Source: Microcoleus sp.
Lineage (GTDB): Bacteria > Cyanobacteriota > Cyanobacteriia > Cyanobacteriales > Microcoleaceae
Direction of reading: 5' to 3'
DNA length: 64,000 nucleotides
NCBI GenBank assembly: GCA_042408215.1
Contig: JAYFMW010000008.1
Location: forward strand, 160,001-224,000
The first letter of the stretch is position 1. Each line of letters opens with the position of its first letter. Of the stretch, positions 19,724-37,793 are shown piece after piece. The notes under the pieces were generated by a model, which saw only the letters and a list, made by a program, of their open reading frames with translations, had not been told where the DNA came from and ran no database searches. A program made the position numbers and the translations under genes.

Positions 19724-20551
19724 CTATAGTATTTTTTCCAAGCCGTAAACGAGCGATCGCAATTCAAGCACTTTGCGTACAGCCAGCAACACTCCGGGCA
19801 TATAACAAGCGCGATCGCTCGTATCGTGCCGCAAAGTATAAACTTGACCCTCGCCACCAAAAATTACCTCTTGGTGAGCAATTAAACCGGGTAAGCGGAT
19901 GCTGTGAATCCGAATTCCTTCCTCCGCCAAACATCCCCTAGCTCCCTGCAACTTTTCGGTTTCTTCAACCTGCGGGGGATTGAAAGTTTTCCCCATTTCT
20001 GCTAACATTTGGGCAGTTTGAATGGCGGTGCCACTGGGAGCGTCGGCTTTTTGATTGTGGTGGAGTTCGATAATTTCTACGTGTTCAAAATATTGAGATG
20101 CTGTGACGGCAGCTTGTTGTAGTAGAACCATGCCGATCGAGAAATTGGGTATAATCAAACAACCAATGCTGGCTTTATCGGCAAATTCAGCTAATTTTTG
20201 AATTTGCTCGCTACTCAAACCGGTAGTGCCGACGACGGGGCGAATGCCGTATGCTATAGCCGATCGCACATTTTCGTAAACCGAATTCGGGTGTGTAAAA
20301 TCTACCATCACCCCTAACTGCTTTTCTTGAGCAGCCAATACGAGCATTCCTTGCAAATCGTCGGTAATGGGAACTTCCAACGGGCCGCCCCCGGCTAACT
20401 CTCCTGCATCGGCGTGCAAGGACTCAGGAGAGTGGTCTATGGCCCCGAATAGGGTTAGGTCCTTAGCCTTGGCGATCGCCTTAATTACTTCGCGGCCCAT
20501 TTTGCCGCCAGCACCGTTAACAATCACCGGAATCGGAAGTTGACTTGTCAT
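19724..20551 (-). CDS. dapB: 4-hydroxy-tetrahydrodipicolinate reductase
   Basis: [30 protein letters not shown] motifs. Confidence 0.97.
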
Positions 20552-21405
20552 AATTTGAAAAAATCCTTAAAGTCGATCGACTAAATTTTAATCCTAGCAG
20601 GACTTACCCACTATACGGCTTAGCATTAACTTTGTTAAATCAAGCAATCAGCTTAAGCAAACTCGGTTTCGGCACAAGTTCTGAAACAATCATACTCTAT
20701 CTAATAATAAGCTCAATTCTGTGAGAACAGACAACGACCAGCGAATTTGCACCGATCAATTTTTTCCGATGGCAGAAGTTGCTGTCTGTCTCAATCCTCG
20801 ACTGCGGTAGTGGGAATTTCTGAGGCGGATCTTCAAGCTTTGGGCCGATTTCTGATGGCCAAGTTCGCGATCGCACAAACCTTGACAAAATTGCCAAAGT
20901 ACCTGCCAAAAGCGATCGGTTTGGATTTGTACCGGGATTGGCCACAAGCAGCGGGGCGCAAGGAATTACTGGCGCAACTGCTGCGGGATACAAGGCGATG
21001 TATCGGGCGAAGGCTTTGGGAATGGTGTTGACTGGTGTGGGCGCGCATACAAAAAGCTTTAGGATGTGCGATCCTCTGACGGTTTTCCCGAACCAGATTG
21101 CTTCGTTCCTCCCAATGACATATTCTGGGATGCTTGGGGCGGGCGATCGCAAATACTAGAGGACACAGCGGCTAATTGTTCGCGGGGCTATTTGGGAACG
21201 GGTTTGAGTACCGAGAGTTTGAAGTTGGAGATTGCTGAGAGTGTGGAGACTGTGGCACTGTTGGCTAAGTTAAGAGCGGCTGTGAATAGGGTCAAGGTTA
21301 TTGTTTTGCTAAGCCCTTACCGAGGGATGATGCTACTGCTTTGATGGCCTCTGAGCCGCAGTGGTAGTTATTAGTTATTGGTTGTTATTTTTTCTCGATT
21401 GTTTT

Positions 21406-21702
21406 ATGAAACCTGAGCGCATTGTTTCTGCTAAAGTTATTGACGATCGCACCTTGATAATTAAGTTTACCAATCTGGAAATCAAGAAGTACGACATCTC
21501 TAAGTTATTAGACAATCCGATGTTTGCGACATTACGAAATCCTGGGTTTTTCAGGAATTTTACAATTGAACCTGGTGGTTATGCACTGGTTTGGAATGAG
21601 GAGATAGATATTAGTGAATATGAACTTTGGCAGAATGGAATTAGTTGCACGGATGAGGAAAGTGAGCGATATATTGAATCTATTCATCAGGTTGTTCACT
21701 GA
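21406..21702 (+). CDS. DUF2442 family protein
   Basis: IVSAKVIDDRTL.IKF.N.E.K.YD..F.TL.NP.FF..GGYALVWNEEIDI. Confidence 0.75.
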   Translation: MKPERIVSAKVIDDRTLIIKFTNLEIKKYDISKLLDNPMFATLRNPGFFRNFTIEPGGYALVWNEEIDISEYELWQNGISCTDEESERYIESIHQVVH

Positions 21703-21728
21703 GAAATAATACTTGACTATTCTGATAA

Positions 21729-22140
21729 ATCGCACGTTTTGACTTATGCCAAAAGAGCGATCGCCCTTAGTTGAGAAAGAGAAAGAAAGGGCGATCGCGA
21801 TTTGCTGTTTAGTTTTCGCTGGAATGGCGATCGCAACAACACCGCAAGCATAATGTAGTTGCACCCTGGTCAACCAAAACATGATCTAGGGTGATGGAAT
21901 GTATTTACTCAGTGGGAATGAATCCTCGTACAGCAGCAGACTGGTTGGCGCGATTGGTAATGGTCAGCGTTGTTAAAACTTTACCGATTGATTTGTCGGA
22001 AGTTGCGTACATTGCGATCGCGCCTCCGAGTCCGCCTGGGGGTTCAGAAACCGGGTTTTTGCACTCATATATCGGTTGAGAGGCAAAAGTTATGTGAAAA
22101 ACCCGGTTTCTTTTGTTTGGGCAAAAAGCGATCGCCCTTT
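21729..22140. repeat. ~400-bp direct repeat, copy 1 (hairpin motif + clan AA aspartyl protease remnant on minus strand + AAACCGGG/CCCGGTTT repeat)
   Basis: Highly similar to 22850-23253; remnant reads GKVLTTLTITNRANQSAAVRGFIPTE*. Confidence 0.75.
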
Positions 22141-22205
22141 TTGTCAAGTAGACATGATTTGAGATAAACTAATATAGATGCTAACTTGAATTTTGAGGAA
22201 ATTAT

Positions 22206-22517
22206 ATGACAGCAGTCATTGCAGAACATATTGAAATTACTCCGGGTATTTGTGGCGGTAAAGCGCGCATTGCCGGCCATCGAATTAAAGTACAGGATAT
22301 TGCCATCTGGTACGAAGATATGGGACTTTCGCCGGATGAAATTGTTTATCACTATCCTTCAATTACTTTGGCAGATGTCTATGCTGCTTTGGCGTATTAT
22401 CACGATCGCCGGCAAGAAATCCGACAACAAATTAGAGAAGATGAAGCTTTTGCACGCGAGATGCAGGCGCAAACTCCTTCTCTGCTTCAGGAAAAATTAA
22501 GAAATCGCAATGTCTGA
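22206..22517 (+). CDS. DUF433 family antitoxin-like protein
   Basis: IEITPGICGGKARIAGHRIKVQDI..GLSPDEI...YP.ITLADVYAALAYY. Confidence 0.92.
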   Translation: MTAVIAEHIEITPGICGGKARIAGHRIKVQDIAIWYEDMGLSPDEIVYHYPSITLADVYAALAYYHDRRQEIRQQIREDEAFAREMQAQTPSLLQEKLRNRNV

Positions 22518-22843
22518 AACTATTCGCTTTCATTTGGATGAAAATGTTAGCAATGCGATCGCCGAAAGTTTGCGGCGGCGCGGCATTGACGTGACGACTA
22601 CGCCGTCAGCAGGGCTGATGGGTTTCTCAGATGAGGAACAGATTGCTTTTGCTGTGAATGAAGACCGGGTTATTTTTACTCAGGATACAGATTTCTTGCG
22701 GCTGAATCAAGAGGAGTTACTCATAATGGTATAGTTTATTGTCAGCAGAATAGTCGCTCAATTGGTGAAATTGTGCGGGTTTAATTTTAATTTGGGAGTA
22801 TGTAGAACTGGAAGAGATGCGCGGGCGGGTTGAATTTATTTGA
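22510..22843 (+). pseudogene. DUF5615 family PIN-like toxin, frameshifted
   Basis: RFHLDENV..SDEEQ..RVIFTQDTDF; continues in shifted frames as THNGIVYCQQNSRSIGEIVR and LILIWEYVELEEMRGRVEFI*. Confidence 0.75.
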
Positions 22844-22849
22844 GGGTCA

Positions 22850-23253
22850 GATCGCACTTTTTGACTTATTCCAAAAGATCGATCGCCCTTTTTTGAGAAA
22901 AAGCAATAAAGGCCGATCGCGATTTGCTGTTGAGTTTTCGCTGGAATGGCGATCGCCTCATCTGGCAAGCATAATGTAGTTGCACCCCTGTCTACTAAAA
23001 CATGATCTAGCGTGATGGAACGTATTTGCTCAGTGGGAATGAATCCTCGTGTAGCAGCAGACTGGTCTGCACAATTGGTAACAGTCAGCATTGTTAAAAC
23101 TTTACCGATTGATTTGTCGGAAGTTGCGTACATATCGAGCCTCCGAGTCCGCTTGGGGGTTCAGAAACCGGGTTTTTGCACTCATATATCGGTTGAGACG
23201 TAAAGGTTATGTAAAAAACCCGGTTTCTTTTGTTTGGGTAAAGGGCGATCGCC
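22850..23253. repeat. ~400-bp direct repeat, copy 2, with aspartyl protease remnant
   Basis: Minus strand RGFIPTEQIRSITLDHVLVDRGATTLCLP (degenerate DTGA motif). Confidence 0.75.
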
Positions 23254-23347
23254 CTCCCCATCCCCAAAAAGGAATATGGTAAATAAAACAATCAGTAAGT
23301 TACAATTAGACTTACAATAATTAAGGAGTTATGAGGAATGTGTAAAT

Positions 23348-23692
23348 ATGGCAAAATTTCCGAACGAACTTGCGGAAATTATCTGGAATTTAAAACGCCA
23401 GTTGCTAGATATTGTTGATGCAGCAACAGCAGCAGAATTGACTCTGTTTGAATTGTTTGGAGAAACGAGTGATACAATCCCATTTCTTAATGAACTGAAA
23501 AGTGTGGCTGAACGTGCTGTACCCTGGTTTTCTCGGTTGTCTAATTTTCAGTTACGCATAGCTGAGTCTCAACCCACAATTTCGGCTGATATGCTAAACT
23601 TAGTAAACCAATCTATTGAACGCATCCAGATGGAAATTCCGGCAATGGAACGGAGTATTCAAGAAGTCAAAACGGAGTGGAATTTGCCATGA
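23348..23692 (+). CDS. Hypothetical helical protein
   Basis: 114-aa ORF with ATGA overlap to the next gene. Confidence 0.7.
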   Translation: MAKFPNELAEIIWNLKRQLLDIVDAATAAELTLFELFGETSDTIPFLNELKSVAERAVPWFSRLSNFQLRIAESQPTISADMLNLVNQSIERIQMEIPAMERSIQEVKTEWNLP

Positions 23693-23898
23693 CTAGCCAA
23701 CCGCGTATTCCCGATCCTGAAACAGCCAAGAGATTATTGGCTAATTTGCGTCGCAGTCGTTTAGCGATGGAAGCAGCGACTCTGGAATTAGAAGACATTA
23801 CGATGCAGTTGGAAAATGATAGCAGACAAAGGCGTTTGGTGAGATTAAGACAGGCAATTAAGGATGCTGAGGCTGCGAGTTTTTCAGTCAATGTCTGA
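23689..23898 (+). CDS. Hypothetical small protein
   Basis: Translationally coupled to the previous gene (ATGA at 23689-23692). Confidence 0.6.
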   Translation: MTSQPRIPDPETAKRLLANLRRSRLAMEAATLELEDITMQLENDSRQRRLVRLRQAIKDAEAASFSVNV

Positions 23899-24091
23899 AA
23901 TTATTTCTTAAATATCGCCCCAAAACCGATAATTTTAATATTGACGAAAACACAAAGGGCGATCGCACGTTTTGACTTATTCCAAAAGGGCCAGATCCCT
24001 AGTTGTCAAGTAAACATCATTTGAGATAAACTAATCCTGAAACTATTCCCTAAAAATATCGCCCATCACCGACAATTTGAATGAACATCAT

Positions 24092-24345
24092 GTCCCCCCC
24101 TTAAGAAGGGGGGCTAGGGGGGATCAATCCAAGACTAAACGACCCAACCATGAATTTCAACCAACATCCAGTCCCCCCCTTCTTAAGGGGGGCTAGGGGG
24201 GATCAATCCAAGACTAAACAACCCAACCGACAATTTCAATGCACATCTTGTCCCCCCCTTCTTAAGGGGGGCTAGGGGGGATCAATCCAAGACTAAACAA
24301 CCCAACCATAAACTTAAACCAACATCCAGTCCCCCCTTAATAAGG
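24092..24345. repeat. 79-bp tandem repeat (3 full copies plus a partial) carrying GTCCCCCCCTT..AAGGGGGGCTAGGGGGGATC
   Basis: Units start at 24092, 24171, 24250, 24329. Confidence 0.9.
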
Positions 24346-24360
24346 AGCACCAGGAAAATC

Positions 24361-24741
24361 ATGCCTTTATTAAAAGACTCAAACTTCCACCTACCATACA
24401 ACCCAAAACTCATCCCCATCGCCAAACAACTGCGAAAAAATCCAACTCCATCCGAAAAAAAACTGTGGCAGAATTTTCTGAGAAATTTCCCTTTTCGAGT
24501 TTTGAGACAACGAGCGATCGACAATTTTATTGTAGACTTTTATTGTGCGGCTTTACTGTTAGTAATTGAAATAGATGGCGAGAGTCATTTTACTGAAGAA
24601 GGGAAACTATATGATGCAGAAAGAACCGGGATTTTAGAGGGGTATGGATTGAAGGTTGTCAGGTTTACGAATGTTGATGTGTTGCAGAGTTTTGAAGGGG
24701 TTTGTGGGGAGTTGTTGGGTTTGATTGAGGGTGATTTTTGA
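24361..24741 (+). CDS. DUF559 (Vsr-like) endonuclease domain protein
   Basis: AKQLRKNPT.SEKKLW..LR, RQRAID.FIVDFYC..LVIEIDGESH, DAERT..LE..G.KVVRFTN. Confidence 0.92.
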   Translation: MPLLKDSNFHLPYNPKLIPIAKQLRKNPTPSEKKLWQNFLRNFPFRVLRQRAIDNFIVDFYCAALLLVIEIDGESHFTEEGKLYDAERTGILEGYGLKVVRFTNVDVLQSFEGVCGELLGLIEGDF

Positions 24742-24746
24742 GGCCA

Positions 24747-24780
24747 GATCCCCCCTAACCCCCCTTAAGAAGGGGGGGAC
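24747..24780. repeat. Inverted copy of the GTCCCCCCCTTCTTAAGGGGGG.TAGGGGGGATC repeat
   Basis: Reverse complement matches 24171-24204 at all but one position. Confidence 0.9.
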
Positions 24781-24868
24781 ATGAAGGAGGATAGATTGTT
24801 CGCTAATTCCAAGCATCGCACTTTTTGACTTATTCCAAAAGGACGATCGACCTTGTAGTTTATCAAGG

Positions 24869-25246
24869 CTAAGCAGCCATCGGGCAAAGGCTCAGAGTTG
24901 AACAATCAACTTTAATTCTCGGTCGCAGTTCAACTTGAACTAAAGTTTTGAATTCTTCATTTTTGGGGGCAACTAAAAATTCTAATTTACCGTTAATATA
25001 ATCATTAATTTCAATAAAGTTCACGAGTTCAAAACACATAATACCCACAGTGCCATCGGCTATTTTTAATTCAATTTGAACTGATTTTTGAATGATATTC
25101 ATTCCAAATTTGAGGGTGACACCTAATGAATCTGTCACTTCATAACACCAATAGCCATCGGAGGGTTGGGAATCTTTTGGTTCTTCACAAAATAATTCTA
25201 GAAAAGCTAGTTCATCAAATCCATCATGTAAATTGATTTTTGCCAT
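24869..25246 (-). CDS. Candidate immunity protein resembling CdiI of the Kp342-type CDI tRNase
   Basis: DELAFLELF.EEP..Y...D..G..L.F..VQ..VELRPRIKV pattern; directly downstream of the toxin-like gene; similarity recalled, not computed. Confidence 0.6.
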   Translation of the reverse strand: MAKINLHDGFDELAFLELFCEEPKDSQPSDGYWCYEVTDSLGVTLKFGMNIIQKSVQIELKIADGTVGIMCFELVNFIEINDYINGKLEFLVAPKNEEFKTLVQVELRPRIKVDCSTLSLCPMAA

Positions 25247-25267
25247 TTTCTTACCTAAGATATTGAG

Positions 25268-25675
25268 TTATTTTCCATAGATTATAGCACTGAGAAAGCG
25301 GCGAGTTCCATCGGGCAAGACTTCCCATGAACTTTGGACTTGGGCGAATTTTCCGGTTCTGCCCGGTAACAGTGAATCTCTAAGCTCTGTATCTATTGTA
25401 GCCTCTTCTCCTGTAGTGTGGTTTGTATAAATATTAATAAATCGCTCAACAATATTACTTTCTTCTTGGACTGCTTGTTCTAGATGAGTTTGAATAAATT
25501 GACGAGATTCTGAATCGTCATCAAATCCCAAGCGATTTAGTTGTTGTCTATTTTGTACCGCTCTTTTTGAGTTATGAGCGTCTGGCTTTATGTTGACATT
25601 GAATAAGTAATCGAGCTTGCGATCGTTAATGATGCAGGGTGTTTTTGCGTCGGTGGGTCGATCGGATTGTGTCAA
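25268..25675 (-). CDS. Stand-alone toxin domain resembling CdiA-CT tRNases of E. coli 3006 / K. pneumoniae 342 (BECR fold)
   Basis: KLDYLF..HN.KR..RLG..HL..NIV..RDSLL.G.TGK..SSWEVLPDG.RRFLSAI pattern; similarity recalled, not computed; TTG start uncertain. Confidence 0.65.
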   Translation of the reverse strand: MTQSDRPTDAKTPCIINDRKLDYLFNVNIKPDAHNSKRAVQNRQQLNRLGFDDDSESRQFIQTHLEQAVQEESNIVERFINIYTNHTTGEEATIDTELRDSLLPGRTGKFAQVQSSWEVLPDGTRRFLSAIIYGK

Positions 25676-25917
25676 TGGCTGATTTTTAAAATATAGATTT
25701 TGGGAATTGTAGGATTATATCATTTTGGCAGTTTTTTCATCCTACAGCACGATCGCACTCACAGCCCCAAAAAGTCGATCGCCCTTTTTGATTTATTCCA
25801 AAAGAGTGATCGCACTTTCTTGAGAAAGAGAAAGAAAGGTCGATCGCCCGTCGCACTCAAAAACCAGCCGTCACTTATCTATCTGGAGGGAGGCGCTAGT
25901 TTTATGCAGAATGTCGC

Positions 25918-27096
25918 CTAATCTTCAGAAAACTTTACAAATCGGAGATTTGAGTCTGGAAAAGTTGACTCAGGAAGGGCGATCGTCAAAACGTTCTCTA
26001 ACAACTCAAAAATTGTTTGCTTCGCAGCTAACAAAAGGGCGCAGTTTTGGGGGTTGAGAGTGAGGGAATCCAACCACGGCAGGCTGGTTTCGCTAATAGC
26101 TTCCAGGTGGCGGCAAAGCAGATGGGGGGCAATTTCGGTGGCGCTTTGTTCGAGGATTTTGGGAACGGCTTGCAGAAGGTTGGCTAGGGTGGCGGCATCG
26201 GGAGATTCCCAGACATAATCTGGTAATGACATGAGTTTAGCTGCGATTTCTGTAGGGGAAATTTCGTCGCCCCCATTGGTTTCTAACTGAATGATGCCTT
26301 GCTGCTGTGCTTTTTGCAGCAGGGTACAGCAACGAAGATATGCAGATTGAACGCGATGGAGGCTATCTTGCGGGGTGGGTTTTCCTGCTGTGCTGATGTT
26401 AATGGGAGCAACTTCTGTGAGGGGAACTCGGAGGCTGTACCAGCGCAGTGCATCCATACTCACGGCTTTGAGCAATTCTGCGGGGGCGATGTCGGGGATG
26501 GGATGGATTTGCTGGGTAGGTTTGTGGAAGGCGTAGAGTTTGATGGGTTGAACGATGATGAATTGAAATTGCTCTTTGGTGTAGCCTAAGCATTGCATGG
26601 CGGCGGTGAGTAGGATGTCGTAGCCGGTGTAAGTAGTGGGACGAATGAGGATGATTTTGTCATAGCCTTGTTGGAATATTTGATGGTAGCGGGCGATATC
26701 TTCTAGGAGTTGGGTGAATTCGCCGTCGCGGTGTTGGAGGACGCGATCGTAGTCATCGCCAAAGTCGGCGGTTTTGATAAACCAGTCTTTGGGTTCGTCT
26801 TTGAGGGCGGTTTGTTCGATGTTGGGGGGAAGGTCGGCGGCAAGTTGACGGGAAAGGGAGGCTTTGTAAATCTTTTGGCTGGTTTTAATTGAGTTAAAAA
26901 AGAGTTCAATATTAGGTAATATTTCTTGGTTATTTGCACTTTCTGTACTCACAAAATTGTAGCATTTTTCTAGGATGTTCTTAACAGTCGTTGTCAGGGA
27001 GCAACGAATATAAGCTGAGGAAGGAAGAGTTTCTAAAGGATATTCGGGAAGGCTCAACCAAATTTTAGCCGATTTTTGGGATAATGCCATCATCAT
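25918..27096 (-). CDS. Truncated arginyl-tRNA synthetase paralog with DALR anticodon-binding domain
   Basis: FGDDYDRVL...DG.FT....DIA..H...GYDKII, DALRWY, VQSAYLRCC.LL, APHLLC..L; no HIGH or KMSKR motif visible. Confidence 0.8.
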   Translation of the reverse strand: MMMALSQKSAKIWLSLPEYPLETLPSSAYIRCSLTTTVKNILEKCYNFVSTESANNQEILPNIELFFNSIKTSQKIYKASLSRQLAADLPPNIEQTALKDEPKDWFIKTADFGDDYDRVLQHRDGEFTQLLEDIARYHQIFQQGYDKIILIRPTTYTGYDILLTAAMQCLGYTKEQFQFIIVQPIKLYAFHKPTQQIHPIPDIAPAELLKAVSMDALRWYSLRVPLTEVAPINISTAGKPTPQDSLHRVQSAYLRCCTLLQKAQQQGIIQLETNGGDEISPTEIAAKLMSLPDYVWESPDAATLANLLQAVPKILEQSATEIAPHLLCRHLEAISETSLPWLDSLTLNPQNCALLLAAKQTIFELLENVLTIALPESTFPDSNLRFVKFSED

Positions 27097-27103
27097 TTCA
27101 CAC

Positions 27104-27390: not shown

Positions 27391-27400
27391 ACTCCTTAAG

Positions 27401-27931
27401 CTAAACCATGTATTCCCAGCCTTTTTCATTCTCAATAAAGCTCTTAATATCAGATTTAAAACGCTTTAGAAAGCCGAGAAAATCATTAGATAATAATTTG
27501 ATATGTTTTGTTTGCCCATCGAATGTCCCATGATAAACAGATCCGGCAGGCAAATACAATACCTCATTATGTTCATCAACACGTAGTGCAAAGCGACCAC
27601 CACCACCATCCGATCCGAAAACTATTATTTTACAATTAATAGGTTCAGATATTCTAACTGGTTCACCGTTTTCAATTCCTCTTAGAATACCTTCAATTGT
27701 GTGGATGTAATAGCCCACATAAACATCTGGAAGATTGAGTCCATCACATTGCTCAAAGAAGGATATAAAGGAAGATGATGAAGCTAGTCCTGATATTGTC
27801 ATCAGATGGGGTAATAGTGTGTTGTTCCCTGGAATTCGGATCATATTATCCCCTAAAGGATAATTGAAGGCTATTTCGTTCATTTTTTTCAACATTAAAT
27901 TAACTTCATCTATCCATTTAATTACGTTCAT
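27401..27931 (-). CDS. SMI1/KNR4 (SUKH) family immunity protein
   Basis: F...CDGL.L, IIVFGSDGGGGRFAL..EVLYL; AGGAG RBS right after the toxin stop. Confidence 0.8.
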   Translation of the reverse strand: MNVIKWIDEVNLMLKKMNEIAFNYPLGDNMIRIPGNNTLLPHLMTISGLASSSSFISFFEQCDGLNLPDVYVGYYIHTIEGILRGIENGEPVRISEPINCKIIVFGSDGGGGRFALRVDEHNEVLYLPAGSVYHGTFDGQTKHIKLLSNDFLGFLKRFKSDIKSFIENEKGWEYMV

Positions 27932-27941
27932 TTAGTCTCCT

Positions 27942-30900
27942 TTATTGAAACCAGTGCTGGCTGTATTGTCGATCTATCTGTTTTGCAAAATTTTCAATTT
28001 GCAATCGAGTTGCACTCGGATTTGAACGTTGAAACTCTGCCCAATCATTTGTGATCTGTTGGTGAATGTTTTCGTCAGCGCGAGAGCCTTTAACTCCACG
28101 AATGTTTGAGGGAGCGTGATAATCAAAGTTTTGAAATTCTGGATGGTCTTTGTAGAACTGAGGTATGGCATGATGAGCATCCCAATCATCTGGGAGCCTG
28201 GGTTGACCTTTAGCAGCTCTGTCTGCATTATACCTGCCACGGTAATTATCAGGTGCTGGGACTCTTGAACTGACCACCTCGTCAACTTTCCCTTTAAGAA
28301 AAGCAAACGCTTTATCCACTTTCTGTGGAACTTCTCGCCTTAGTTGCCGAACATTGTCTGCTAGATCGGCAAAGAACCCTTCATTCGGCAATTTTCCAAT
28401 TACATACTCATGCTGAAGGATACCCAGCTTGGGTAGTAGGTTGTCAAATGAGCGAATCCCATCATTGAGTTTCCGTAATAACCCTTCGATAGTATCCAAA
28501 ATCTTGAGGTAGAAATTTTTAGACTTGGTAGCTAGTGAGTCCCAATCAGTTCGCTTCGCAAAATCAACAACAGCATCAACAATAGTAGGACCTAGCTTTC
28601 TCATTTCTGTCACGAAATCAGCATTGCGAGCTACTTTGGTGACACCTTTAATAGCCCCTCCTGCCACTGGAACCAGACCAACTAAGGAACCGACAACACC
28701 CACCCAGTTCCAAGCATCTTGCATCTCAGATGGGTTATCGATAAATTTCTTAGTGTAGGCAATCAAGTCACGAACATCACCAATTTCTCCAGCAATCGGA
28801 ATCATACCAATTGCAGAATCAAGCAGAACTTGCCAGATTGAGGGATCATTATTAAATTCTCCCATCAAAGCACCGATGACAAAGTTGCTAGCACTACCTA
28901 AGCCATTAACAAAATCATCAAGTAAACGTTTGTAGAGATTGCCTTGATCTTTGATCGCCTTCTCTACACCTGTTCGAGTGGCAGCAATCTTAGCATCGAC
29001 TCCATTAATTTGATTCCACAAGTGACCTGTCTTGTCTCCCAAAATGGCATTGACAATATCCGCCACCGTCTTCTGAGTGCGAGGTTCAATCCAATCAATA
29101 ATCCCCTTCAGACCACTTCCAATTCCGCTAATTGTCGATTGGAAACCATCCGCAACACCATCCACCGCAGGCTTGACAATGTTGTTGTAAACATTGAAAT
29201 TAAACTTAACACCATACTGATCGACATTGATGCCAAGATTTTTCGTCCAATCAGTAGCGCTCAGGACGTGACCTTTGAACTCTCCAATCAGATTATTAGC
29301 ACCTCGAACGGCTTGATCGACCTTAGTTCGGAAAGTTTGAGCCGCATTCGCAATAATCTGATTAATCTCTGCTCCAGTGCGGTAGGCATTCTTGATCGTA
29401 TCAAAGAATTGCTGGATTGCTGAATTCACTCCATTTTGAATCTCAATTAGCTTACCTCTGAGCCAACTACGAGCGCTATTAACCGCACTCGTGACAGCAT
29501 CTCGTCCTTGGCGAATTAACCATTTAGCGTCATTTTTCCGATCTTTTACCCAGCCAATTCCGTAATCAGGAACTTGATTTACTGTGTTTTCTAAGCTATT
29601 CGCAAACGAATTAGCTTTATTGATAATCCCATCAGCCAGATTATCAACTTGACCCTTAATCGGATTAGCAATGCCATCAACCCAAACATTGGCATTATGA
29701 CGAGCATCATCCAAAGCCTGATGAACCTTTTGCCGTTGCTCCGCATTCATCTGGTCGAGCAACTCTTGCATCTGTTGCTCATAGCTGCGCTTCTCGCGCT
29801 CAAGTTCGGCAATCTTGGCATTAGCCTTAGCCCGCTCTGGCACTGAAAAATTCGCCAATGCCGTATCATAAATGCGCTGAATACGCGAATCGCTGAACAG
29901 TGAGCCAGAAGCCCCACCGCCACCACCACTATTGCCATTACCACCAACTTTCCACCCTAAAGGTGGCCCTATTTCTGATTGAGAGAGCTTGTGTTTGAAC
30001 TTAACAATCAGCTCGTAATCCGTCGTCACACCTTTAGGACTATTGACTCGCAGCATATAAGTACCAGGAATCAAATCAGCAATAATTTGCTCATCCGTAA
30101 TTCCCTCCCGCATCGAATAGGCAATAGGTTCATTCCGCACATCGTAGAGAACCAAATCTGCATCAGCCAACAGCTTTTTCAGTTCAGCCGTAATCCGACC
30201 ACCGCGAGACAAAGTAAAGCGATAGTAATCATCCGGCACCAAATGTCCAACTGTTTCACCCGTTAAAGATGTCTCAAACGGATCGACAGGCCCAAACTCA
30301 GGCATAGGCTTGGCAAGATACCAATCCAATCCTCCCTTACCTTGCTGACGAGCAATCTCCGCTTGACGAGCCAACTCAGCCAACCGCGCTTCTTCCAGAC
30401 GGCGTTCTTCCTCTTGGCGACGGCGTTCCATTTGTTCACGCAAACGCCGTTGTTGGTCTTCAAGTTCCCGTTGCTGGGCTTCCGCTTCCCGTCGCCGTGC
30501 TTCCTCTTCTTGACGAACTCGCTCTTGATCCCGCGCAAAAGCCTCTTCCTGTTCCCGCCGAATACGAGCTTCTTCTTCCTGCCGCTGCCTTAATTCTGCT
30601 TCGCGCTGTAGCCGTTCTGCCTCTTGTTCTTGCTCATAGTTGGGATGCCAGACTGGAATCCAACCTTCATTGCCTTGGACAATCCAGTTAGGATCGGGAA
30701 AACCATTCTTATTGGAAATAAATCGCCAATAATCCGGGTCATTAGCTTTCGCAATAGCAGAACGATGGTCGTCCTTACTAGGATGTGTCATCCGTTGAAG
30801 AACGTAGTCGCTAATCGTATGACCTTGCCGCCAGTTTCCAATAACAATCTTTTCCCAATCGTAATACTCGCCATTCTTCGAGAACCGTTCCGCGTGCGCC

Positions 30901-33900
30901 CAGATTTCTGGCGACACCTTATCGGGGTCAACCGTCGGCATAATCGGAGCAATATACTCCGCACCCGGTTCCTCAAAAGAAGTTTCAGCCAGTTCTCGGA
31001 AGGCTTCAAGCTGCTCTGGCGTTAAATCATCAACCCTGAACCCTTGACCGCCAAACAACCCAAAATCTGGAGTTGCCCCCTTCAAATTCACCTCGTAACC
31101 CAAATCGGCCAAAGATGCAATAGTAACAGGGCTAATCGGCGCATTGCCAGCCTTGCCGCTGAAGTTCAAATCAGCCGTCATCACCTCATCTTGGAACAGC
31201 GCCTCATTCCAGTGGAAACCAGCCGAACCTTTACCCTCAGTTTCCAGAGAAATAGCATCAGTCAAACCGCCCAAATCTTTGAACGCATCAACCGCCTTTC
31301 CACCGTTATACTGAGCCAGTGGCGTACCCGCATAATTCACCAAACCCTTAGCTTCCCAAAGATTCCCAAAACCCAAAGCGTGTAAAAACTCGTGCTGCAC
31401 AACGCTAAACAACTTTCCAGAACGCTCCAACTCGGCAATATCCGCTGCATCAAACTGCACTAAAGATTGAGCGGGCAACATACTTCCGTAGCGCATGAAA
31501 TCAATTTTAGTTCGCGCTTGAGTGCCGCTGGCACCGTCAATATTGGCAGTGGAAATCTTGATATTGATATCGTCAATAATCTTGCCGTCAACCACTGCAC
31601 TCGGCAACCCTTTGCCAATTAATCCAGCCACACTTTTTGCAGCGGCTTGCATAATCGCTTGTTGCGAAGCACTCAGCGGCGTTTCATATTCCAGATCGAT
31701 ATTAAACGGCTCAGTCGCGGTACTCTCAAAACCAGAGAGAACGTAAGTTGCAGGATCGGCATTGCGTTGGTCAATTTTGACAATCACCTCTGCTGGTGCA
31801 TTGGCTGGCAACTGCAATTTATGACTGCCCTTGCTGAAGGATTGAGTCCCCAATAATTGTCCAGAAGTTGTCAGGTAGCTGACGGATAAGTCGCCTGAAA
31901 GGACGGAAAACTTAGCACCATTTAAGTAGCGACTGTCAACCCGATAAATATCCGACGGATCGACGCTGCTAACCTGATCGATGACATCTTCGGTAGCGGA
32001 AGGAATCAGTTGCGTTGCATTAGCAAGATTATTGCTGCCCCGATCGACATTTGTTTGAGGAATTCCAGGGACTTTCACCGTAGGATGAGTCGGATCTCCT
32101 GGTAACTGCTTGGCGATCGGATGTTGAGAAATGAAGACATCGGTAATACTTCGCTGTCCGGGTTTAAGCGTGTAAAGTTCCGGTATAGTTACCTTTGCCA
32201 ACTGCACCGCAGCCGCCACATTCAGCAAGCCAGACCCAGTTTGAGCGTCCCAATTAGGTCGATCGAGGTCTGTAGCAGTACGCTTGATAATGTCAATTGC
32301 CTGAGTGTAATTCAGCTTGGGATTTGCTGCTAAAATTTGGGCGATCGCATTCGTGACTTCAACAGCAGCAACCTCTGTGCTGGATGTATTGCCACTGCTA
32401 CCGTTAGCGAGAATATCGAGAGTATTGCCGCTACCGGAATAATCTGCCAATTTAAAGGCATTGGATAGTGCAACGGAATCGTTAAATCGTTGAGCCGCAC
32501 CGACAGTAACTACGTTGTCAACTTCCTTAGATAATAGACCGAGAGCCGACATTGTGCCTGAGTTATCTCCAGCGGGAACAACAACAATAACATTGTTCTG
32601 ATATGCGTAGGCGATCGCCGATCGTTCTGCTGCCGTTAATTCCTTGCGGGGAATCACAGTTCCATCAGGCTGAGTTTGAGTCAGGTTGATGTTAATATTA
32701 ACAACGGCATGGGGTTGCTTCGATACCTTAGCAGCATCCACAAATTTAATCAGAGATTCTACCCACTGACTCGAATTATCTTGAGTGCGATCGACTGGCT
32801 GCGACGGGTTATTTGTGCTATTTTCTGGTTTTTCCCCTGCAACAATCAGACTCTTTTCCTCAGCAGGATTATCGACAGTCAAGCCAGTATCGTTGATAAA
32901 ACCGACCAAAGGGCGATTTTCGACAGGAAACTCAAATTGTACTGCTTCGACTGGTTCGACTGGTTTAGGTTCGACTTTCACAACCATATCTTCCAGCCGC
33001 GAAATCAACGCCGCTGTATTATCCGAAATAGGATTCGAGCCAGTTTGCTCCCTCAACTTCTCAGTCATGGCTTCCAAACGAGCAATCGAAGTGCGATCGA
33101 TCGCATTTTCGGCAACAACATCAGCACCACCCAAATTACTCAAACGCTGTTTAATGCTATCCAATCGCGCAATCCAATCAGCATTGACATTATTATTGTT
33201 TTGTGCTAATTCCTGCTTAACCGATTCAGTCACCGCCGCAGTCGAATTATCCTCAGTTGGTTTTGCAACAGTTGGAGAAATTGGCAATAACTCTTTTGGT
33301 GCAGCATCATTAACACCAGCAGTCTCAGTCTGAGTAACTATCTCCTTGTTCCGCAAGTCTACAGCAGTATTCGTACCTACAACTGGCATAGTTTTCGCTG
33401 CTGTCGGCGGCACAATCGCTGGAGTTTCTTTACTCTCAACCGCCGCTGTTGGCTGACTTTCCTTCACCGACTCTACAGGATTTGCGGCTACAACAACTTG
33501 AGTAGTTTCAGTTTTCTCTACCTCAGTTACTAAAGCCGGCTTTGTTTCTACCTTTGTCAGACTTTCCGCTGGCAAAACTGATGGCTTTGTTTCTACCTTT
33601 GTCAGACTTTCCGCTGGCAAAACTGACGGCTTTGTTTCTACCTTAGCCTGACTTTCCGCTGGCAAAACTTCGGGTTTAGTCTCTACTTTTGTCAGACTTT
33701 CCGCTGGCAAAACTTCGGGTTTAGTCTCTACTTTTGTCAGACTTTCCGCTGGCAAAACTTCGGGTTTAGTCTCTACTTTTGTCAGACTTTCCGCTGGCAA
33801 AACTTCGGGTTTAGTCTCTACTTTTGTCAGACTTTCCGCTGGCAAAACTTCGGATTTAGTCTCTACTTTTGTCAGACTTTCCGCTGGCAAAACTGACGGC

Positions 33901-36737
33901 TTTGTTTCTACTTTCGCCTGAGTTTCCGCTGGCAAAACTTCGGGTTTTGTTTCTACCTTTGTCAGAGTTTCCGCTGGTAAAACTGACGGCTTTGTTTCTA
34001 CTTGTGTCAGAGTTTCCGCTGGCAAAACTTCGGGTTTTGTTTCTACTTTCTCAGTTGGTATCGTTGCAGCAACTTCCGTCTCAGTAGTAGATTGAGCTGG
34101 CAAAGTTGGCATCGCTGGTGCTTCGGTAACTTGGTCTTTTACCTCAGTTGTCGCTGCGGGAATAGGCGTTTTTTCAACTGGTAAATTTTCAGTCGAATCC
34201 GCCACAGTATCTTTGCCAGCAGTTGGTGTAGTTGTCGCACCTGTTGTCGGATTTGCATCTACCTTGTCGGTAGTTTCAACCTGAGTCGAATCACCCGAAT
34301 TATTCGCAATATCTTTGACTTTTTCCTCAGTCGTCACCGCTGGAGTAGTAGGCTTTGCATCTACCTTGTCGGTAGTTTCAACTTGAGTCGAATCACCCGA
34401 ATTATTCGCAATATCTTTGACTTCTTCCTCAGTCGTCACCGCTGGAGTAGTAGGCTTTGTATCTACTTTGTCGGTTGTTTCAACTTGAGTCGAATCACCC
34501 GAATTATTCGCAATATCTTTGACTTCTTCCTCAGTCGTCACCGCTGGAGTAGTAGGCTTTGCATCTACCTTGTCGGTAGTTTCAACTTGAGTCGAATCAC
34601 CCGAATTATTCGCAATATCTTTGACTTCTTCCTCAGTCGTCACCGCTGGAGTAGTAGGCTTTGCATCTACCTTATCCGTTGGTACAATCTTGGTTGCATC
34701 AGTAGTATTGGTGTCGGTATTTGCGACAGGCGCTGGAGTTTTTGGAGCCTCTTTATCTGAAGTTGATGGATTCAGAATTTCCGTTTCTAAATCATCAAGT
34801 AAATCCGATAATTCAGCATCTACATTTGGTTTTGGTTCCGGGGTAATGTAAGGTTTCGCATAAGCAATAAGTGCCTTGCCCAAATCAGTTTTCCGCCAAT
34901 CTTTATCCGGGTTAATCGAAGTATCCAACAAAGCAGTTGTTGCCGTCGCACCCCGCACTTGGAAAATGATATCATTATAATCCCTGTCAGTCCCCGAATC
35001 TAACCGCATATCCTCCATAACAAAGGTATTGCCTTCTCCCGTGAAATCCGCAATTTGACCAAAGTGAAATCCCTCCACAGGATTCGCCATAGCCATAGAA
35101 AATAAAGGACGTTGAGCACCCCCAATAGTCGGATTATCAAACACAGACTTTACACTACCATTGGGTATCAACATCACCCCATATTTACCCCCTGGAGTTA
35201 CCGCAAAACTCTTGACTCCTAAGTAGGCTCCTTCATTAGCATTACTCTCTCCTAACACACCAGAAAACCGCGCACCTTCTGTAACATCATCAATCACTAC
35301 ATGACCTTTCACAGAGTTACTTAAAGAACGTGCAGCTACTTCTTTAATGAATGCTTCCGAACCAGGTTCAAATTTCTCTAATCCGTCCAAACTGAAAAGA
35401 GCTAACTCACCTTGGAACATCCCACCATCAAATGTGTAGTCTACACGAATTTGACCACTTTGATCCGTAGTAAATATCCCCGATGTAAATGGAAAAATTA
35501 ACTTTTTGTCCGTAGTTTGTTCTAGTTCTTTTGTGGTTTCAGCAGTCGGTATTGAAGTATTTGCATTCTCTGTTTTGGTGTCTTCCCCGTTGCTGGTGGC
35601 GGTATTCGGTTTGTCCCCTGGCTTGGTGGCATCTGGGGAAGTAGCAACTGGTTTGTCGGTAGTTGCTGATGTTGTTGCAGCCGCAGATTCAGTCGCGGCT
35701 ACAGGTTTTTCCGGTTCCGATGTGAGAGTTGTTTCGGAGGTTGTAGCAACTGGTTTGTCGGTAGTTGCTGATGTTGTTGCAGCCGCAGATTCAGTCGTGG
35801 CTACAGGTTTTTCCGGTTCAGATGTGAGAGTTGTTTCGGAGGTTGTAGCAACTGGTTTGTCGGTAGTTGCTGATGTTGTTGCCGCCGCAGATTCAGTCGC
35901 TGCTACAGGTTTTTCCGGTTCAGATGTGAGAGTTGTTTCGGAGGTTGTAGCAACTGGTTTGTCGGTAGTTGCTGATGTTGTTTCCACCGCAGATTCAGTC
36001 GCAGCTACAGGTTTTTCCGGTTCAGATGTGAGAGTTTTTTCGGAGGTTGTAGCAACTGGTTTGTCGGTAGTTGCTGATGTTGTTGCAGCCGCAGATTCAG
36101 TCGCGGCTACAGGTTTTTCCGGTTCAGATGTGAGAGTTGTTTCGGAGGTTGTAGCAACGGGTTTGTCGGTAGTTGCTGATGTTGTTGCAGCCGCAGATTC
36201 AGTCGCGGCTACAGGTTTTTCCGGTTCAGATGTGAGAGTTGTTGCGGAGGTTGTAGCAACTGGTTTGTCGGTAGTTGTTGATGTTGTTTCTGTTGTTTCT
36301 GCGGTGACAGTCTTGTCATCAACAGGAGCTCCTGTAATTACATCTTTGTTGGTAGTGGGTTTTTCCGAAGTTGTGGTGCTGTTTGAGGAAAGTGGATCAT
36401 CTGATTTTGCGCCGGTGAGGGTGTCTGCGTCGGATGCTGGTTTAGTGCTAGCTGGTGCTAAATTCAGCGTGTATTTGATGTCGCCAGTTATCGGCAAAAC
36501 TTTGACTGGATAGTCTCCGGCTACTAAGCTGTCAGCGCTAATTGTTTCTGCACTGGTTCCCGCGTTGGTGGAAATGTAACCTGTTGCGCCGCTATTGTTT
36601 GACAATAATACGTCGGCATTCCCGCTTAAAACGTTGGGGGAAAATTCAAAAATTTTGGGAGTGTCGATATTTGTAGTGCCAACACTACCTGTGTAGGTTG
36701 TGCTGCCAGTCAATGCCCCGATGTTAAGTTCAGCCAT
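27942..36737 (-). CDS. Giant polymorphic toxin (2931 aa): Thr-rich repeats, DUF4114-type domain, degenerate subtilase-like region, zincin metalloprotease, PPC domains, coiled coil, pre-toxin TG-like region, HNH/AHH-like nuclease tip
   Basis: EDM...DRDYNDIIF; VVPAGDN and TGSGLLNVAAAV; HEFLHALG; DDYYRFTL..ADADLVLYD; IGMIPIAGEIGDVRDL; tip WDAHHAIPQ..SNI..IHQQIT; followed by a SUKH gene. Confidence 0.88.
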   Translation of the reverse strand: MAELNIGALTGSTTYTGSVGTTNIDTPKIFEFSPNVLSGNADVLLSNNSGATGYISTNAGTSAETISADSLVAGDYPVKVLPITGDIKYTLNLAPASTKPASDADTLTGAKSDDPLSSNSTTTSEKPTTNKDVITGAPVDDKTVTAETTETTSTTTDKPVATTSATTLTSEPEKPVAATESAAATTSATTDKPVATTSETTLTSEPEKPVAATESAAATTSATTDKPVATTSEKTLTSEPEKPVAATESAVETTSATTDKPVATTSETTLTSEPEKPVAATESAAATTSATTDKPVATTSETTLTSEPEKPVATTESAAATTSATTDKPVATTSETTLTSEPEKPVAATESAAATTSATTDKPVATSPDATKPGDKPNTATSNGEDTKTENANTSIPTAETTKELEQTTDKKLIFPFTSGIFTTDQSGQIRVDYTFDGGMFQGELALFSLDGLEKFEPGSEAFIKEVAARSLSNSVKGHVVIDDVTEGARFSGVLGESNANEGAYLGVKSFAVTPGGKYGVMLIPNGSVKSVFDNPTIGGAQRPLFSMAMANPVEGFHFGQIADFTGEGNTFVMEDMRLDSGTDRDYNDIIFQVRGATATTALLDTSINPDKDWRKTDLGKALIAYAKPYITPEPKPNVDAELSDLLDDLETEILNPSTSDKEAPKTPAPVANTDTNTTDATKIVPTDKVDAKPTTPAVTTEEEVKDIANNSGDSTQVETTDKVDAKPTTPAVTTEEEVKDIANNSGDSTQVETTDKVDTKPTTPAVTTEEEVKDIANNSGDSTQVETTDKVDAKPTTPAVTTEEKVKDIANNSGDSTQVETTDKVDANPTTGATTTPTAGKDTVADSTENLPVEKTPIPAATTEVKDQVTEAPAMPTLPAQSTTETEVAATIPTEKVETKPEVLPAETLTQVETKPSVLPAETLTKVETKPEVLPAETQAKVETKPSVLPAESLTKVETKSEVLPAESLTKVETKPEVLPAESLTKVETKPEVLPAESLTKVETKPEVLPAESLTKVETKPEVLPAESQAKVETKPSVLPAESLTKVETKPSVLPAESLTKVETKPALVTEVEKTETTQVVVAANPVESVKESQPTAAVESKETPAIVPPTAAKTMPVVGTNTAVDLRNKEIVTQTETAGVNDAAPKELLPISPTVAKPTEDNSTAAVTESVKQELAQNNNNVNADWIARLDSIKQRLSNLGGADVVAENAIDRTSIARLEAMTEKLREQTGSNPISDNTAALISRLEDMVVKVEPKPVEPVEAVQFEFPVENRPLVGFINDTGLTVDNPAEEKSLIVAGEKPENSTNNPSQPVDRTQDNSSQWVESLIKFVDAAKVSKQPHAVVNININLTQTQPDGTVIPRKELTAAERSAIAYAYQNNVIVVVPAGDNSGTMSALGLLSKEVDNVVTVGAAQRFNDSVALSNAFKLADYSGSGNTLDILANGSSGNTSSTEVAAVEVTNAIAQILAANPKLNYTQAIDIIKRTATDLDRPNWDAQTGSGLLNVAAAVQLAKVTIPELYTLKPGQRSITDVFISQHPIAKQLPGDPTHPTVKVPGIPQTNVDRGSNNLANATQLIPSATEDVIDQVSSVDPSDIYRVDSRYLNGAKFSVLSGDLSVSYLTTSGQLLGTQSFSKGSHKLQLPANAPAEVIVKIDQRNADPATYVLSGFESTATEPFNIDLEYETPLSASQQAIMQAAAKSVAGLIGKGLPSAVVDGKIIDDINIKISTANIDGASGTQARTKIDFMRYGSMLPAQSLVQFDAADIAELERSGKLFSVVQHEFLHALGFGNLWEAKGLVNYAGTPLAQYNGGKAVDAFKDLGGLTDAISLETEGKGSAGFHWNEALFQDEVMTADLNFSGKAGNAPISPVTIASLADLGYEVNLKGATPDFGLFGGQGFRVDDLTPEQLEAFRELAETSFEEPGAEYIAPIMPTVDPDKVSPEIWAHAERFSKNGEYYDWEKIVIGNWRQGHTISDYVLQRMTHPSKDDHRSAIAKANDPDYWRFISNKNGFPDPNWIVQGNEGWIPVWHPNYEQEQEAERLQREAELRQRQEEEARIRREQEEAFARDQERVRQEEEARRREAEAQQRELEDQQRRLREQMERRRQEEERRLEEARLAELARQAEIARQQGKGGLDWYLAKPMPEFGPVDPFETSLTGETVGHLVPDDYYRFTLSRGGRITAELKKLLADADLVLYDVRNEPIAYSMREGITDEQIIADLIPGTYMLRVNSPKGVTTDYELIVKFKHKLSQSEIGPPLGWKVGGNGNSGGGGGASGSLFSDSRIQRIYDTALANFSVPERAKANAKIAELEREKRSYEQQMQELLDQMNAEQRQKVHQALDDARHNANVWVDGIANPIKGQVDNLADGIINKANSFANSLENTVNQVPDYGIGWVKDRKNDAKWLIRQGRDAVTSAVNSARSWLRGKLIEIQNGVNSAIQQFFDTIKNAYRTGAEINQIIANAAQTFRTKVDQAVRGANNLIGEFKGHVLSATDWTKNLGINVDQYGVKFNFNVYNNIVKPAVDGVADGFQSTISGIGSGLKGIIDWIEPRTQKTVADIVNAILGDKTGHLWNQINGVDAKIAATRTGVEKAIKDQGNLYKRLLDDFVNGLGSASNFVIGALMGEFNNDPSIWQVLLDSAIGMIPIAGEIGDVRDLIAYTKKFIDNPSEMQDAWNWVGVVGSLVGLVPVAGGAIKGVTKVARNADFVTEMRKLGPTIVDAVVDFAKRTDWDSLATKSKNFYLKILDTIEGLLRKLNDGIRSFDNLLPKLGILQHEYVIGKLPNEGFFADLADNVRQLRREVPQKVDKAFAFLKGKVDEVVSSRVPAPDNYRGRYNADRAAKGQPRLPDDWDAHHAIPQFYKDHPEFQNFDYHAPSNIRGVKGSRADENIHQQITNDWAEFQRSNPSATRLQIENFAKQIDRQYSQHWFQ
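33540..34050 (-). repeat. 45-bp coding tandem repeat (KVETKPEVLPAESLT), about 11 copies
   Basis: Seen in DNA and protein. Confidence 0.9.
34255..34680 (-). repeat. 102-bp coding tandem repeat (TTDKVDAKPTTPAVTTEEEVKDIANNSGDSTQVE), 4 copies
   Basis: Seen in DNA and protein. Confidence 0.9.
35640..36280 (-). repeat. 102-bp coding tandem repeat (TTDKPVATTSETTLTSEPEKPVAATESAAATTSA), 6 copies
   Basis: Seen in DNA and protein. Confidence 0.9.
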
Positions 36738-37785: not shown

Positions 37786-37793
37786 GCACGATC

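Follow-up and report, generated by a model that had tools for sequence, protein, structure and literature searches.

We analysed a 64-kb stretch of a Microcoleus genome (the window, G000:C8:160001-224000) that carries an array of small gene modules punctuated by a short direct repeat, here called M, beside the gene of a giant secreted protein. The genome (7.36 Mb, 45% G+C) contains 5097 sites of the HIP1 palindrome (GCGATCGC; 0.69 sites per kb), and M consists of an asymmetric centre between two such sites. The comparisons reported below show that modules have been gained, lost and duplicated at copies of M, and that M is also where they have been exchanged from array to array, locus to locus and species to species. 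The core of M, TTTTGAYTTATKCCAAAAG, matched five times in the window at ≤2 mismatches, always on the + strand (at 21737, 22859, 23970, 24823 and 25786), while the expected number was 0.01 and 0 of 100 shuffles reached five. A previous sequence-only reading of this DNA had described five co-oriented copies with a degenerate right HIP1 in the third. Coordinates and strand agree with ours, the third right HIP1 is indeed degenerate, and HIP1 or HIP1-like flanks are present.

Layout of the array

At its left, toxin-distal end the array begins with a DUF2442 gene (21361..21702, + strand), which keeps this distal position in G008, G014, G003 and G009. The first copy of M (M1, 21726..21764, +), with a degenerate left HIP1, lies 27 nucleotides (nt) past the DUF2442 stop codon and has one HIP1 in common with a hairpin of a second type, H2 (21758..21797, +). 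Next comes a degenerate retropepsin-like aspartic-protease module on the - strand (21769..22138), followed by half an M (22128..22143, +), in which the left HIP1 and the T-run abut a promoter-like segment (TTGTCA-18-TAAACT, 22141..22170, +; a consensus match only) and the right half has been deleted at a TTG microhomology. This sixth, half-deleted M of the window had been missed by the sequence-only reading, and contigs of relatives join 22122/3 directly to an M core at this position. The promoter-like segment precedes a DUF433/DUF5615 (PIN-like) gene pair (22206..22734, +), whose second gene is truncated (74 vs ~110 amino acids (aa); the pair is full length in L036). The second copy of M (22848..22886, +) is again followed by H2 (22880..22919, +) and then by a second copy of the retropepsin-like module (22890..23255, -; open reading frame (ORF) 22717-23133). 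M and the degenerate retropepsin-like gene on the - strand together form a 410-nt direct repeat (21729-22138 and 22851-23255, 89%) that had also gone unnoticed; intact homologues of this gene (L043:10999-11442 and L037:6519-6968) match Asp_protease_2. A hairpin-type repeat of ~80 nt (GGTTCAGAAACCGGGTTTTTGC...AAAACCCGGTTTCTTTTG), seen within the two remnants at 22033-22113 and 23150-23230, has dozens of copies in the genome, many of them in tandem.

Further to the right lie two overlapping genes of unknown family (114 and 73 aa; 23348..23898, +) that gave no family match and form the same module in G009. They are followed by the third copy of M (23959..23997, +), whose degenerate right HIP1 is a variant that travels with the DUF559 module. 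This module has a promoter-like segment of its own (24003..24032, +; likewise a consensus match only) ahead of the DUF559 gene (24361..24741, +), which has a Vsr-like endonuclease fold. The segment that the sequence-only reading saw shared near 22141 and 24003 extends over 22135-22173 and 23997-24035 (90%). On either side of the DUF559 gene stand copies, inverted relative to each other and 95-97% complementary, of a C6/G6-rich repeat of ~38 nt (24246-24283 and 24747-24784), which occurs also at 24088-24125 and 24171-24204 and in hundreds of genome copies, often tandem; the gene and its inverted repeats resemble a small mobile unit within the module. After M4 (24812..24850, +) comes a two-gene module on the - strand (24869..25675) that encodes a 135-aa DUF6883-like and a 125-aa unknown protein. 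The likeness of the first protein to DUF6883 comes from language-model features alone (0.94) and is a lead. The pair had been labelled tRNase/immunity; neither protein has a Pfam or NCBIfam match, and the tRNase identity of 25268-25675 is unsupported. Pfam agrees with the previous labels for DUF2442, DUF433, DUF5615/PIN and DUF559. M5 (25775..25813, +), the copy nearest to the toxin gene, is followed by another H2 (25807..25846, +).

To the right of M5 and H2 stand an ArgS-related gene, a SUKH-1-like gene and the giant gene, all on the - strand. The giant gene (27942..36737) encodes a 2931-aa secreted polymorphic toxin candidate with DUF4114, PPC and an S8-like region (Pfam), and its 3' end points toward the array. 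Directly after it lies the SUKH-1-like gene (27401..27931), which is likely its immunity gene and which matches below threshold (E 3.8e-4, 21.5 bits vs a cut-off of 25.4). The gene between it and the array (25918-27096) encodes a 392-aa ArgS-related anticodon-binding protein, NrtL-like by NCBIfam below the cut-off; its role may be that of an immunity gene or a decoy. Part of its 5' region, 82 nt long, recurs upstream at 72% (26836-26917 vs 27126-27207). Directly upstream of the toxin gene are three tandem 308-nt units (96% matches, 36668-37592), each of which repeats the first codons of the toxin gene and the region upstream of it, giving extra copies of its 5' end and promoter.

Hairpins built on HIP1

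With relatives included, the consensus of M is GCGATCGCAC-TTTTTG-ACTTATT-CCAAAAGG-GCGATCGC. The element is 39 nt long (HIP1, a 23-nt asymmetric centre and HIP1), and its imperfect inverted arms of 16 nt enclose an asymmetric middle of 7 nt (16-7-16). The single common polymorphism of the centre falls exactly on the dyad centre. Among copies preselected at ≤3 mismatches, the major base has a frequency of 0.95-1.0 at 11 of 12 centre positions; under the same preselection the loop of H2 is more variable. Folded as RNA, full copies of M form hairpins of -18 to -24 kcal/mol (z -4.7 to -6) that are stable and have U-tails on both strands; on the - strand, which is the toxin-sense strand, the hairpin is followed by a U-run. 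H2 (HIP1-CCTT..TTGAGAAA..AAGG-HIP1; -24.6 kcal/mol for the copy at 21758..21797) has five good copies in the genome, all of them inside two arrays, where they have the orientation of M and often a HIP1 in common with it. A shorter relative of M, called the M2 element, reads HIP1-ACCTTTCC..CCAAAAAG-HIP1. No other family of note was found among the 765 HIP1-N20-30-HIP1 pairs of the genome, and an Rfam scan of 20500-27500 gave 0 matches at E≤1. A simple terminator and promoter scan did not call M because its loop or stem form falls outside the scan rules; the promoter-like segment was called twice, with total calls below the shuffle mean.

Such hairpins raise the possibility that M is a mere functional RNA or DNA element under selection (a bidirectional terminator, a processing site or a protein-binding site) that plays no causal part in recombination, the arrays having grown by vertical descent, local duplication and ordinary indels. 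The U-tails on both strands suit this explanation, and so do the common architecture of M, H2 and the M2 element with their different loops and the fact that HIP1 followed by xCTTTT is the commonest HIP1 context in the genome (122 sites). A generic terminator would, however, be expected to be dispersed, whereas M is found only in arrays. Genome-wide, the core matched 10 times at ≤2 substitutions, with five matches in the window, three on the + strand of a second contig (C29:138190-140515) and two unrelated 2-mismatch matches without HIP1 flanks. A 49-nt weight matrix built from 74 copies recovered the same 8 copies and one weak site. The motif is therefore not scattered: it occupies two loci only, and all 8 strong copies lie at module boundaries. 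Breakpoints between species and loci also fall recurrently at M, as described in the next section, and we regard the purely functional hairpin as improbable.

The same confinement was seen across the genus, which we sampled with 79 genomes, 71 of them of high quality. M was present in 41 of the 79 (36 of the 71), and a reversed-pattern control gave 1 match. Of 24 congeners 13 carried it, and of 16 other genera in the order one did, with a single 1-mismatch match. Among the matches listed (18 further matches lie outside the listing), 40 contigs have at least two copies of M, and in 40 of the 40 all copies are on a single strand. All these counts are lower bounds because arrays often lie at contig ends. 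Array-bearing public records belong to Microcoleus, Tychonema and metagenome-assembled genomes (MAGs) of Oscillatoriales or Microcoleaceae. Single matches in records outside these taxa numbered 18, of which 17 lack HIP1-like flanks and one, in an unclassified cyanobacterial MAG, has an array-type flank. A search of plasmids gave no match, and the two viral matches, which are without HIP1 flanks, are due to chance.

M also occurs in tandem M-M units that have a HIP1 in common, the 31-nt unit being one centre and one HIP1, and there is a 106-nt unit that recurs up to three times in a row. The right HIP1 of M4 (window 24842-24852) is interrupted by a 24-nt palindrome (TCCCTACGGGATAGCTCCGCTTCA) in other species and in a metagenome contig (insertion sites L032:10416, L036:9643 and L039:3549), and HIP1 sites may be insertion points for mini-palindromes. 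Both the 31-nt unit and the 24-nt palindrome would agree with M being a miniature palindromic insertion that copied itself into nearby HIP1 sites and punctuated a toxin-antitoxin island afterwards, with shuffling as a by-product. Yet thousands of HIP1 sites were available and M occupies two loci, no transposase is present, and a uniform orientation is unexpected for a palindromic target; we consider this origin even a little less probable than that of a purely functional hairpin. A shorter HIP1-bounded unit (ACCTTTCCATnCCAAAAAGAG, period ~26 nt) forms runs within and beside the arrays of some species (L034:5885-8760; L043:9990-10080) and is absent from this genome.

Module exchange and the toxin gene

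We compared 39 array stretches from ~30 genomes, containing 146 copies of M and 107 inter-M segments. The median segment measures 744 nt (<150 nt, 20 segments; 150-500 nt, 3; 500-1300 nt, 75; >1300 nt, 9), and a typical M-bounded module is ~0.6-1.2 kb long. Segments of ≥150 nt fall into 31 families, 16 of them recurrent. Each recurrent family has several different neighbours, and none is ever inverted relative to M (0 inverted matches ≥250 nt in the 39 stretches). According to Pfam, the content is mostly of the toxin-antitoxin type (MazEF/PemK, HicAB, HEPN/nucleotidyltransferase, PIN, DUF433/DUF5615, XisH/XisI, DUF4160/DUF2442, ParD, TumE, GIY-YIG, retropepsin-like and DUF559). The DUF559 gene lies in an M-bounded segment in 6 of the 39 stretches; this genome has three copies of it, all in arrays, including tandem DUF559 modules in C29.

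When both flanks were considered for the 74 copies of M with 75 nt of flank on each side, there were 70 distinct combinations of upstream and downstream families. Junctions can also be defined independently of M, as everything upstream of the promoter-like segment (n = 35). M was present at ≤2 mismatches in 28 of these (14 exact, 10 with one mismatch and 4 with two), and the other 7 comprised one decayed M, five M2 elements and the half M of the window. In G008, the closest relative at this locus (95.6% flank identity), the left flank of M1 runs directly into the right flank of M3, and window ~21770-24002 is missing. Indels between species do end at the motif; a scattered motif, or indels that end elsewhere, would have refuted the sequence-only reading. 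The - strand module at 24853-25775 is 98.4-99.2% identical in 9 of 11 other stretches (95.5% and 94.9% in the remaining two), compared with 84-97% for the DUF2442 gene and 89-96% for the DUF559 gene. Since it also stands at different positions and, in some stretches, at a different locus, it looks like a case of recent horizontal spread. In a comparison with 19 sequencing runs, all assembled Logan contigs, the contigs of 4 metagenome runs (relatives) showed alternative joints at M with short sides of 20-46 nt: 22122/3 to 22857/9 (2 runs), 24848 back to 23998, and 22919 to 23954. A circle would account for the joint leading back from 24848, but tandem DUF559 modules such as those of C29 account for it equally well; the metagenome joints lend weak support to exchange at M.

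Variation within M narrows the interval of exchange. Degenerate forms of the left HIP1 go with the upstream module and those of the right HIP1 with the downstream module, and linkage to the flank is seen from -11 outwards and from +22 outwards (z up to 7.8 and 10.6), which places the exchange within ~30 nt. Variants of the centre at -3, -1, +8, +17 and +18 are linked to neither flank (|z| ≤1), in a small sample of 26 and 36 copies from families of ≥3.

Much of this pattern could be produced by an integron-like site-specific system, in which M would be the core site of an unlinked recombinase, either sequence-specific or acting on the folded hairpin, and modules would excise as circles with one M and reinsert at any M, like the Xer movement proposed for pdif modules. 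The narrow exchange interval and the HIP1 variants that follow their modules argue for such a system, as do the array-confined, strictly direct copies of M, their asymmetric conserved centre with its common polymorphism at the dyad, and the fixed orientation of every module family. It would also account for M at 28 of 35 junctions of unrelated modules and for one module that recurs at 98-99% identity in nine species and varies there in position and locus. A fixed crossover, though, would not be expected to leave centre variants linked to neither flank, and M-M tandems or junctions with only the M2 element or H2 are not products of excision and integration. Moreover, conserved modules lie at both array ends, without polarity of the attI type. 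We consider site-specific recombination possible but doubtful.

The array has a constant neighbour. By tblastn, an S8 (subtilase) frame was found in 26 of the 39 stretches; in 26 of 26 it is encoded on the other strand from M, its 3' end being the one nearer to the array, and in 13 of them the nearest M is 32-307 nt from the toxin stop codon. Two of the 13 stretches without an S8 match have another large secreted protease gene at the same position (an S8-LGFP protein in one, and in the other a DUF4114/calpain-type protein and then a PPIase), and in the other 11 the contig ends within 3.3 kb on that side. The position downstream of a polymorphic toxin, first noted from the window, therefore generalises: at 28 of 29 loci with enough flank, a convergent gene encoding a large secreted toxin of the protease type has its 3' end next to the array. 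The one clear exception is the metagenome contig L203, where the array lies between argJ and dprA and there is no such toxin gene. The gene adjoining this toxin-less array, dprA (L203:7963-9114), is a natural-transformation gene, which is probably a coincidence.

The toxins are built of S8, PPC, DUF4114 and SH3 domains with differing C-terminal domains (muramidase, pesticin-like lysozyme, M23, CHAP, SLT and C39-like). Eleven of them have 480-810 N-terminal residues at 77-87% identity and diverge thereafter. A conserved N-terminus, a varied C-terminus and S8 together fit the Sec-type polymorphic toxins with a subtilisin processing domain that are described by Zhang et al. 2012 (PMC3482391). Along with the conserved N-terminal part and the variable C-terminal domain, an adjacent immunity-like gene (SUKH-1-like, sub-threshold) is present in the window. 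In five toxin pairs with a common tip, the similarity ends 43 nt past the stop codon just before M, at the far edge of M (+178/179, with the M core at +148/149) or at +115-120, in each case at M or no more than ~40 nt from it. No match of modules to toxin genes was seen in the blast comparisons made. Other S8 paralogues in this genome (C28 and C5) are without M.

We also examined four motif-negative genomes at two syntenic loci (AlaDH and dapB; 8 stretches), and none of the 8 stretches contains M. The toxin-plus-array segment, 10.9 kb at the AlaDH locus, is missing there in 4 of 4 stretches and at the dapB locus in 3 of 4, so that 7 of 8 stretches lack both toxin and array. G001 has retained a diverged toxin and a DUF433 pair, without M. 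In G002 and G007 the 3' end of the DUF2442 gene is fused to the end of the gene at window ~37770. This arrangement is a plain deletion, which truncates genes on both sides, and no att-like duplication was seen at the island borders. Window 37610-38099, the right edge of this deletion, contains a fragment like the C-terminus of the 135-aa module protein (a by-eye resemblance) and then a DUF4926 gene (Pfam on the L035 homologue).

Mechanism and relation to known systems

The sequence-only reading had seen no integrase in the window, and we likewise found no tyrosine or serine recombinase domain there (PF00589 gave no match). The genome has 5 tyrosine-recombinase and 26 resolvase-domain matches, none in the window or near either array, and no Xer-type gene was recognised among the five tyrosine recombinases. 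The best genome-wide match to the integron integrase (TIGR02249) scored 29.4 bits vs a cut-off of 265 and was not near the arrays. No recombinase was found in the annotated flanks of 8 arrays (150 ORFs) or among the 19 largest ORFs of 15 metagenome contigs; altogether, no recombinase gene was found beside at least 29 arrays. Three candidate enzymes were rejected. A FimB-like tyrosine recombinase, one of the five (11 of 79 genomes), has no relation to M, the array-type DUF559 is found in 47 of 79 genomes, including motif-negative ones, and is absent from the array-rich G009 and G058, and the 413-aa gene at the distal end of three arrays is ArgJ, which is no recombination enzyme. A 427-aa large serine recombinase (G000:C6:645454-646734) is a single-copy core gene of 77 of 79 genomes of this non-heterocystous genus (78-95% identity) and is equally common in motif-negative genomes. 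Being near-universal, it does not explain the presence or absence of M; it could be a candidate host factor.

The lack of a linked recombinase and of an integron integrase, and candidates that do not track M, weigh against a site-specific system, whereas the core serine recombinase would at least supply it with a candidate host enzyme. In a more particular version of that explanation, the HIP1-stemmed hairpins M, H2 and the M2 element would all be structure-specific recombination sites of an unlinked host enzyme, of which this serine recombinase is one candidate; we find this version somewhat more doubtful still. A true integron remnant, an attC cluster without integrase (CALIN), would be in keeping with small toxin-antitoxin-rich modules and repeats of uniform orientation. 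However, attC sites (R''-L''...L'-R', with a GTTRRRY core) are ~57-141 nt long and M is only 39 nt, there were 0 attC R''..R' consensus pairs in 21300-26000 (shuffle mean 1.1), the genome has no IntI, and genes lie on both strands. A remnant of this kind is highly improbable. As there is no integron integrase, attC-like site or linked recombinase, the array is not an integron. The sequence-only reading had proposed an integron-like or HIP1-recombination site; its first half survives in layout only and fails in every defining feature tested, and the evidence leans towards its second half, HIP1 and homologous recombination.

We read the arrays as genus-specific cassette arrays tied to a toxin gene and tentatively favour, at a little short of an even chance, HIP1-assisted homologous recombination and gene conversion, the hairpin doubling as terminator and insulator. 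Exchange would take place after DNA uptake, with RecA-type homologous recombination and short-patch gene conversion as its main routes between copies of M. The two HIP1 sites would help, in the manner of Chi or by promoting uptake, and the exchange would be anchored either in the toxin gene, by its long conserved 5' part, or in the conserved flank at the distal end. Uptake would drive the replacement of everything up to the next M. Such a process would need no dedicated integrase. M is a hairpin followed by a U-run in the toxin sense, for which reason we propose that it may be the terminator of the toxin gene and an insulator between modules. A conserved 5' anchor in the toxin would account for the position of arrays at the 3' ends of toxin genes and for the joint variation of tips and modules. 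Centre variants that are independent of both flanks fit one fixed cleavage point less well than they fit crossovers, or short conversion tracts, lying to either side of the centre. The M-M tandems, the 106-nt repeats, the tandem DUF559 modules, a 1122-nt window duplication, the 24-nt palindrome insertion and the half M point to events driven by homology or microhomology. According to a preprint, integration in Synechococcus PCC 7002 is more efficient when the homology arms contain HIP1, an effect termed "reminiscent of a Chi site" (10.1101/2024.09.10.611283).

Several points weigh against HIP1-assisted homologous recombination. The integration effect of HIP1 was reported for a different cyanobacterium, and the terminator function of M is a prediction. 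A 39-nt arm, effectively ~25 nt where HIP1 is degenerate, is short for RecA. Homologous recombination alone cannot account for the initial placement of M around unrelated genes, and it leaves M at nearly every junction of the 31 module families unexplained. A single module has moved between loci and species with both ends in M, and the asymmetric centre is conserved more strongly than a plain terminator loop needs. In addition, nothing points to homogenisation within arrays: per 23 nt, copies from one array show 2.46 differences and copies from different species 2.51, and 149 of 500 permutations gave a value equal to or lower than the observed one. Taken together, the short arms, the clean module move, the conserved centre, the unrelated junctions and the lack of homogenisation keep an unlinked site- or structure-specific recombinase a serious rival.

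Microcoleus and Tychonema, ecologically important mat- and crust-forming cyanobacteria, would have a cassette-array system without integron integrase or attC in a phylum where integrons are rare. It would join three puzzles, namely the diversification of polymorphic-toxin neighbourhoods, the build-up of toxin-antitoxin islands and the purpose of HIP1, and M would be a possible natural landing pad for engineering these cyanobacteria. If the hairpins are structure-specific sites, the integron principle would have been invented independently, as a bank of toxin-antitoxin and defence modules on a polymorphic toxin gene, and the long-unexplained HIP1 palindrome would gain a concrete function in recombination.

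Among known systems, sedentary chromosomal integrons such as the Vibrio superintegron are similar in their small modules, their homogeneous co-oriented hairpin repeat, their species-variable content and their toxin-antitoxin modules with promoters of their own. Integron cassettes, mostly promoterless, co-oriented and inserted at attI, differ from the modules described here, many of which contain promoter-like segments and which have genes on both strands and show neither attI-type nor any other insertion polarity; there is no IntI, attI or attC consensus, the repeat is a 39-nt element built on HIP1, and the anchor is the 3' end of a toxin gene and not an integrase. The pdif modules of Acinetobacter plasmids are bounded by 28-nt 11-6-11 XerC/XerD sites in alternating orientation. 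They too are discrete modules, including toxin-antitoxin pairs, with short bounding sites and no linked recombinase, whereas M has a 16-7-16 geometry, is always direct, is chromosomal and is based on HIP1. REP/BIME, Correia and other small palindromic repeats are likewise short imperfect palindromes and possible terminators; REP/BIME and Correia elements are dispersed genome-wide, unlike M, which occurs in one or two arrays per genome.

The rAID-1 clusters of Bacteroidales have a 5' XerD-like recombinase and co-directional orphan immunity genes (Ross et al., bioRxiv 10.1101/471110). They resemble the M arrays as horizontally spread gene arrays linked to interbacterial antagonism, with intergenic repeats 'reminiscent of integrons' in the words of that preprint. 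The arrays described here lack a recombinase, have genes in both orientations and contain mainly modules of the toxin-antitoxin type. The array belongs to a polymorphic toxin locus of the kind presented in PMC3482391: a large Sec-type toxin with a subtilisin domain, variable tips, an immunity-like gene and variable downstream DNA. In the orphan cassettes described there, toxin tips and immunity genes are preceded by a piece of the toxin gene; no such orphans are seen here, and in their place stand unrelated modules of the toxin-antitoxin type with a dedicated hairpin border on the opposite strand. No published description of M arrays was found in the full-text literature, subscription-only papers not being covered. 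The M arrays are cassette arrays that have no integrase and are built on HIP1.

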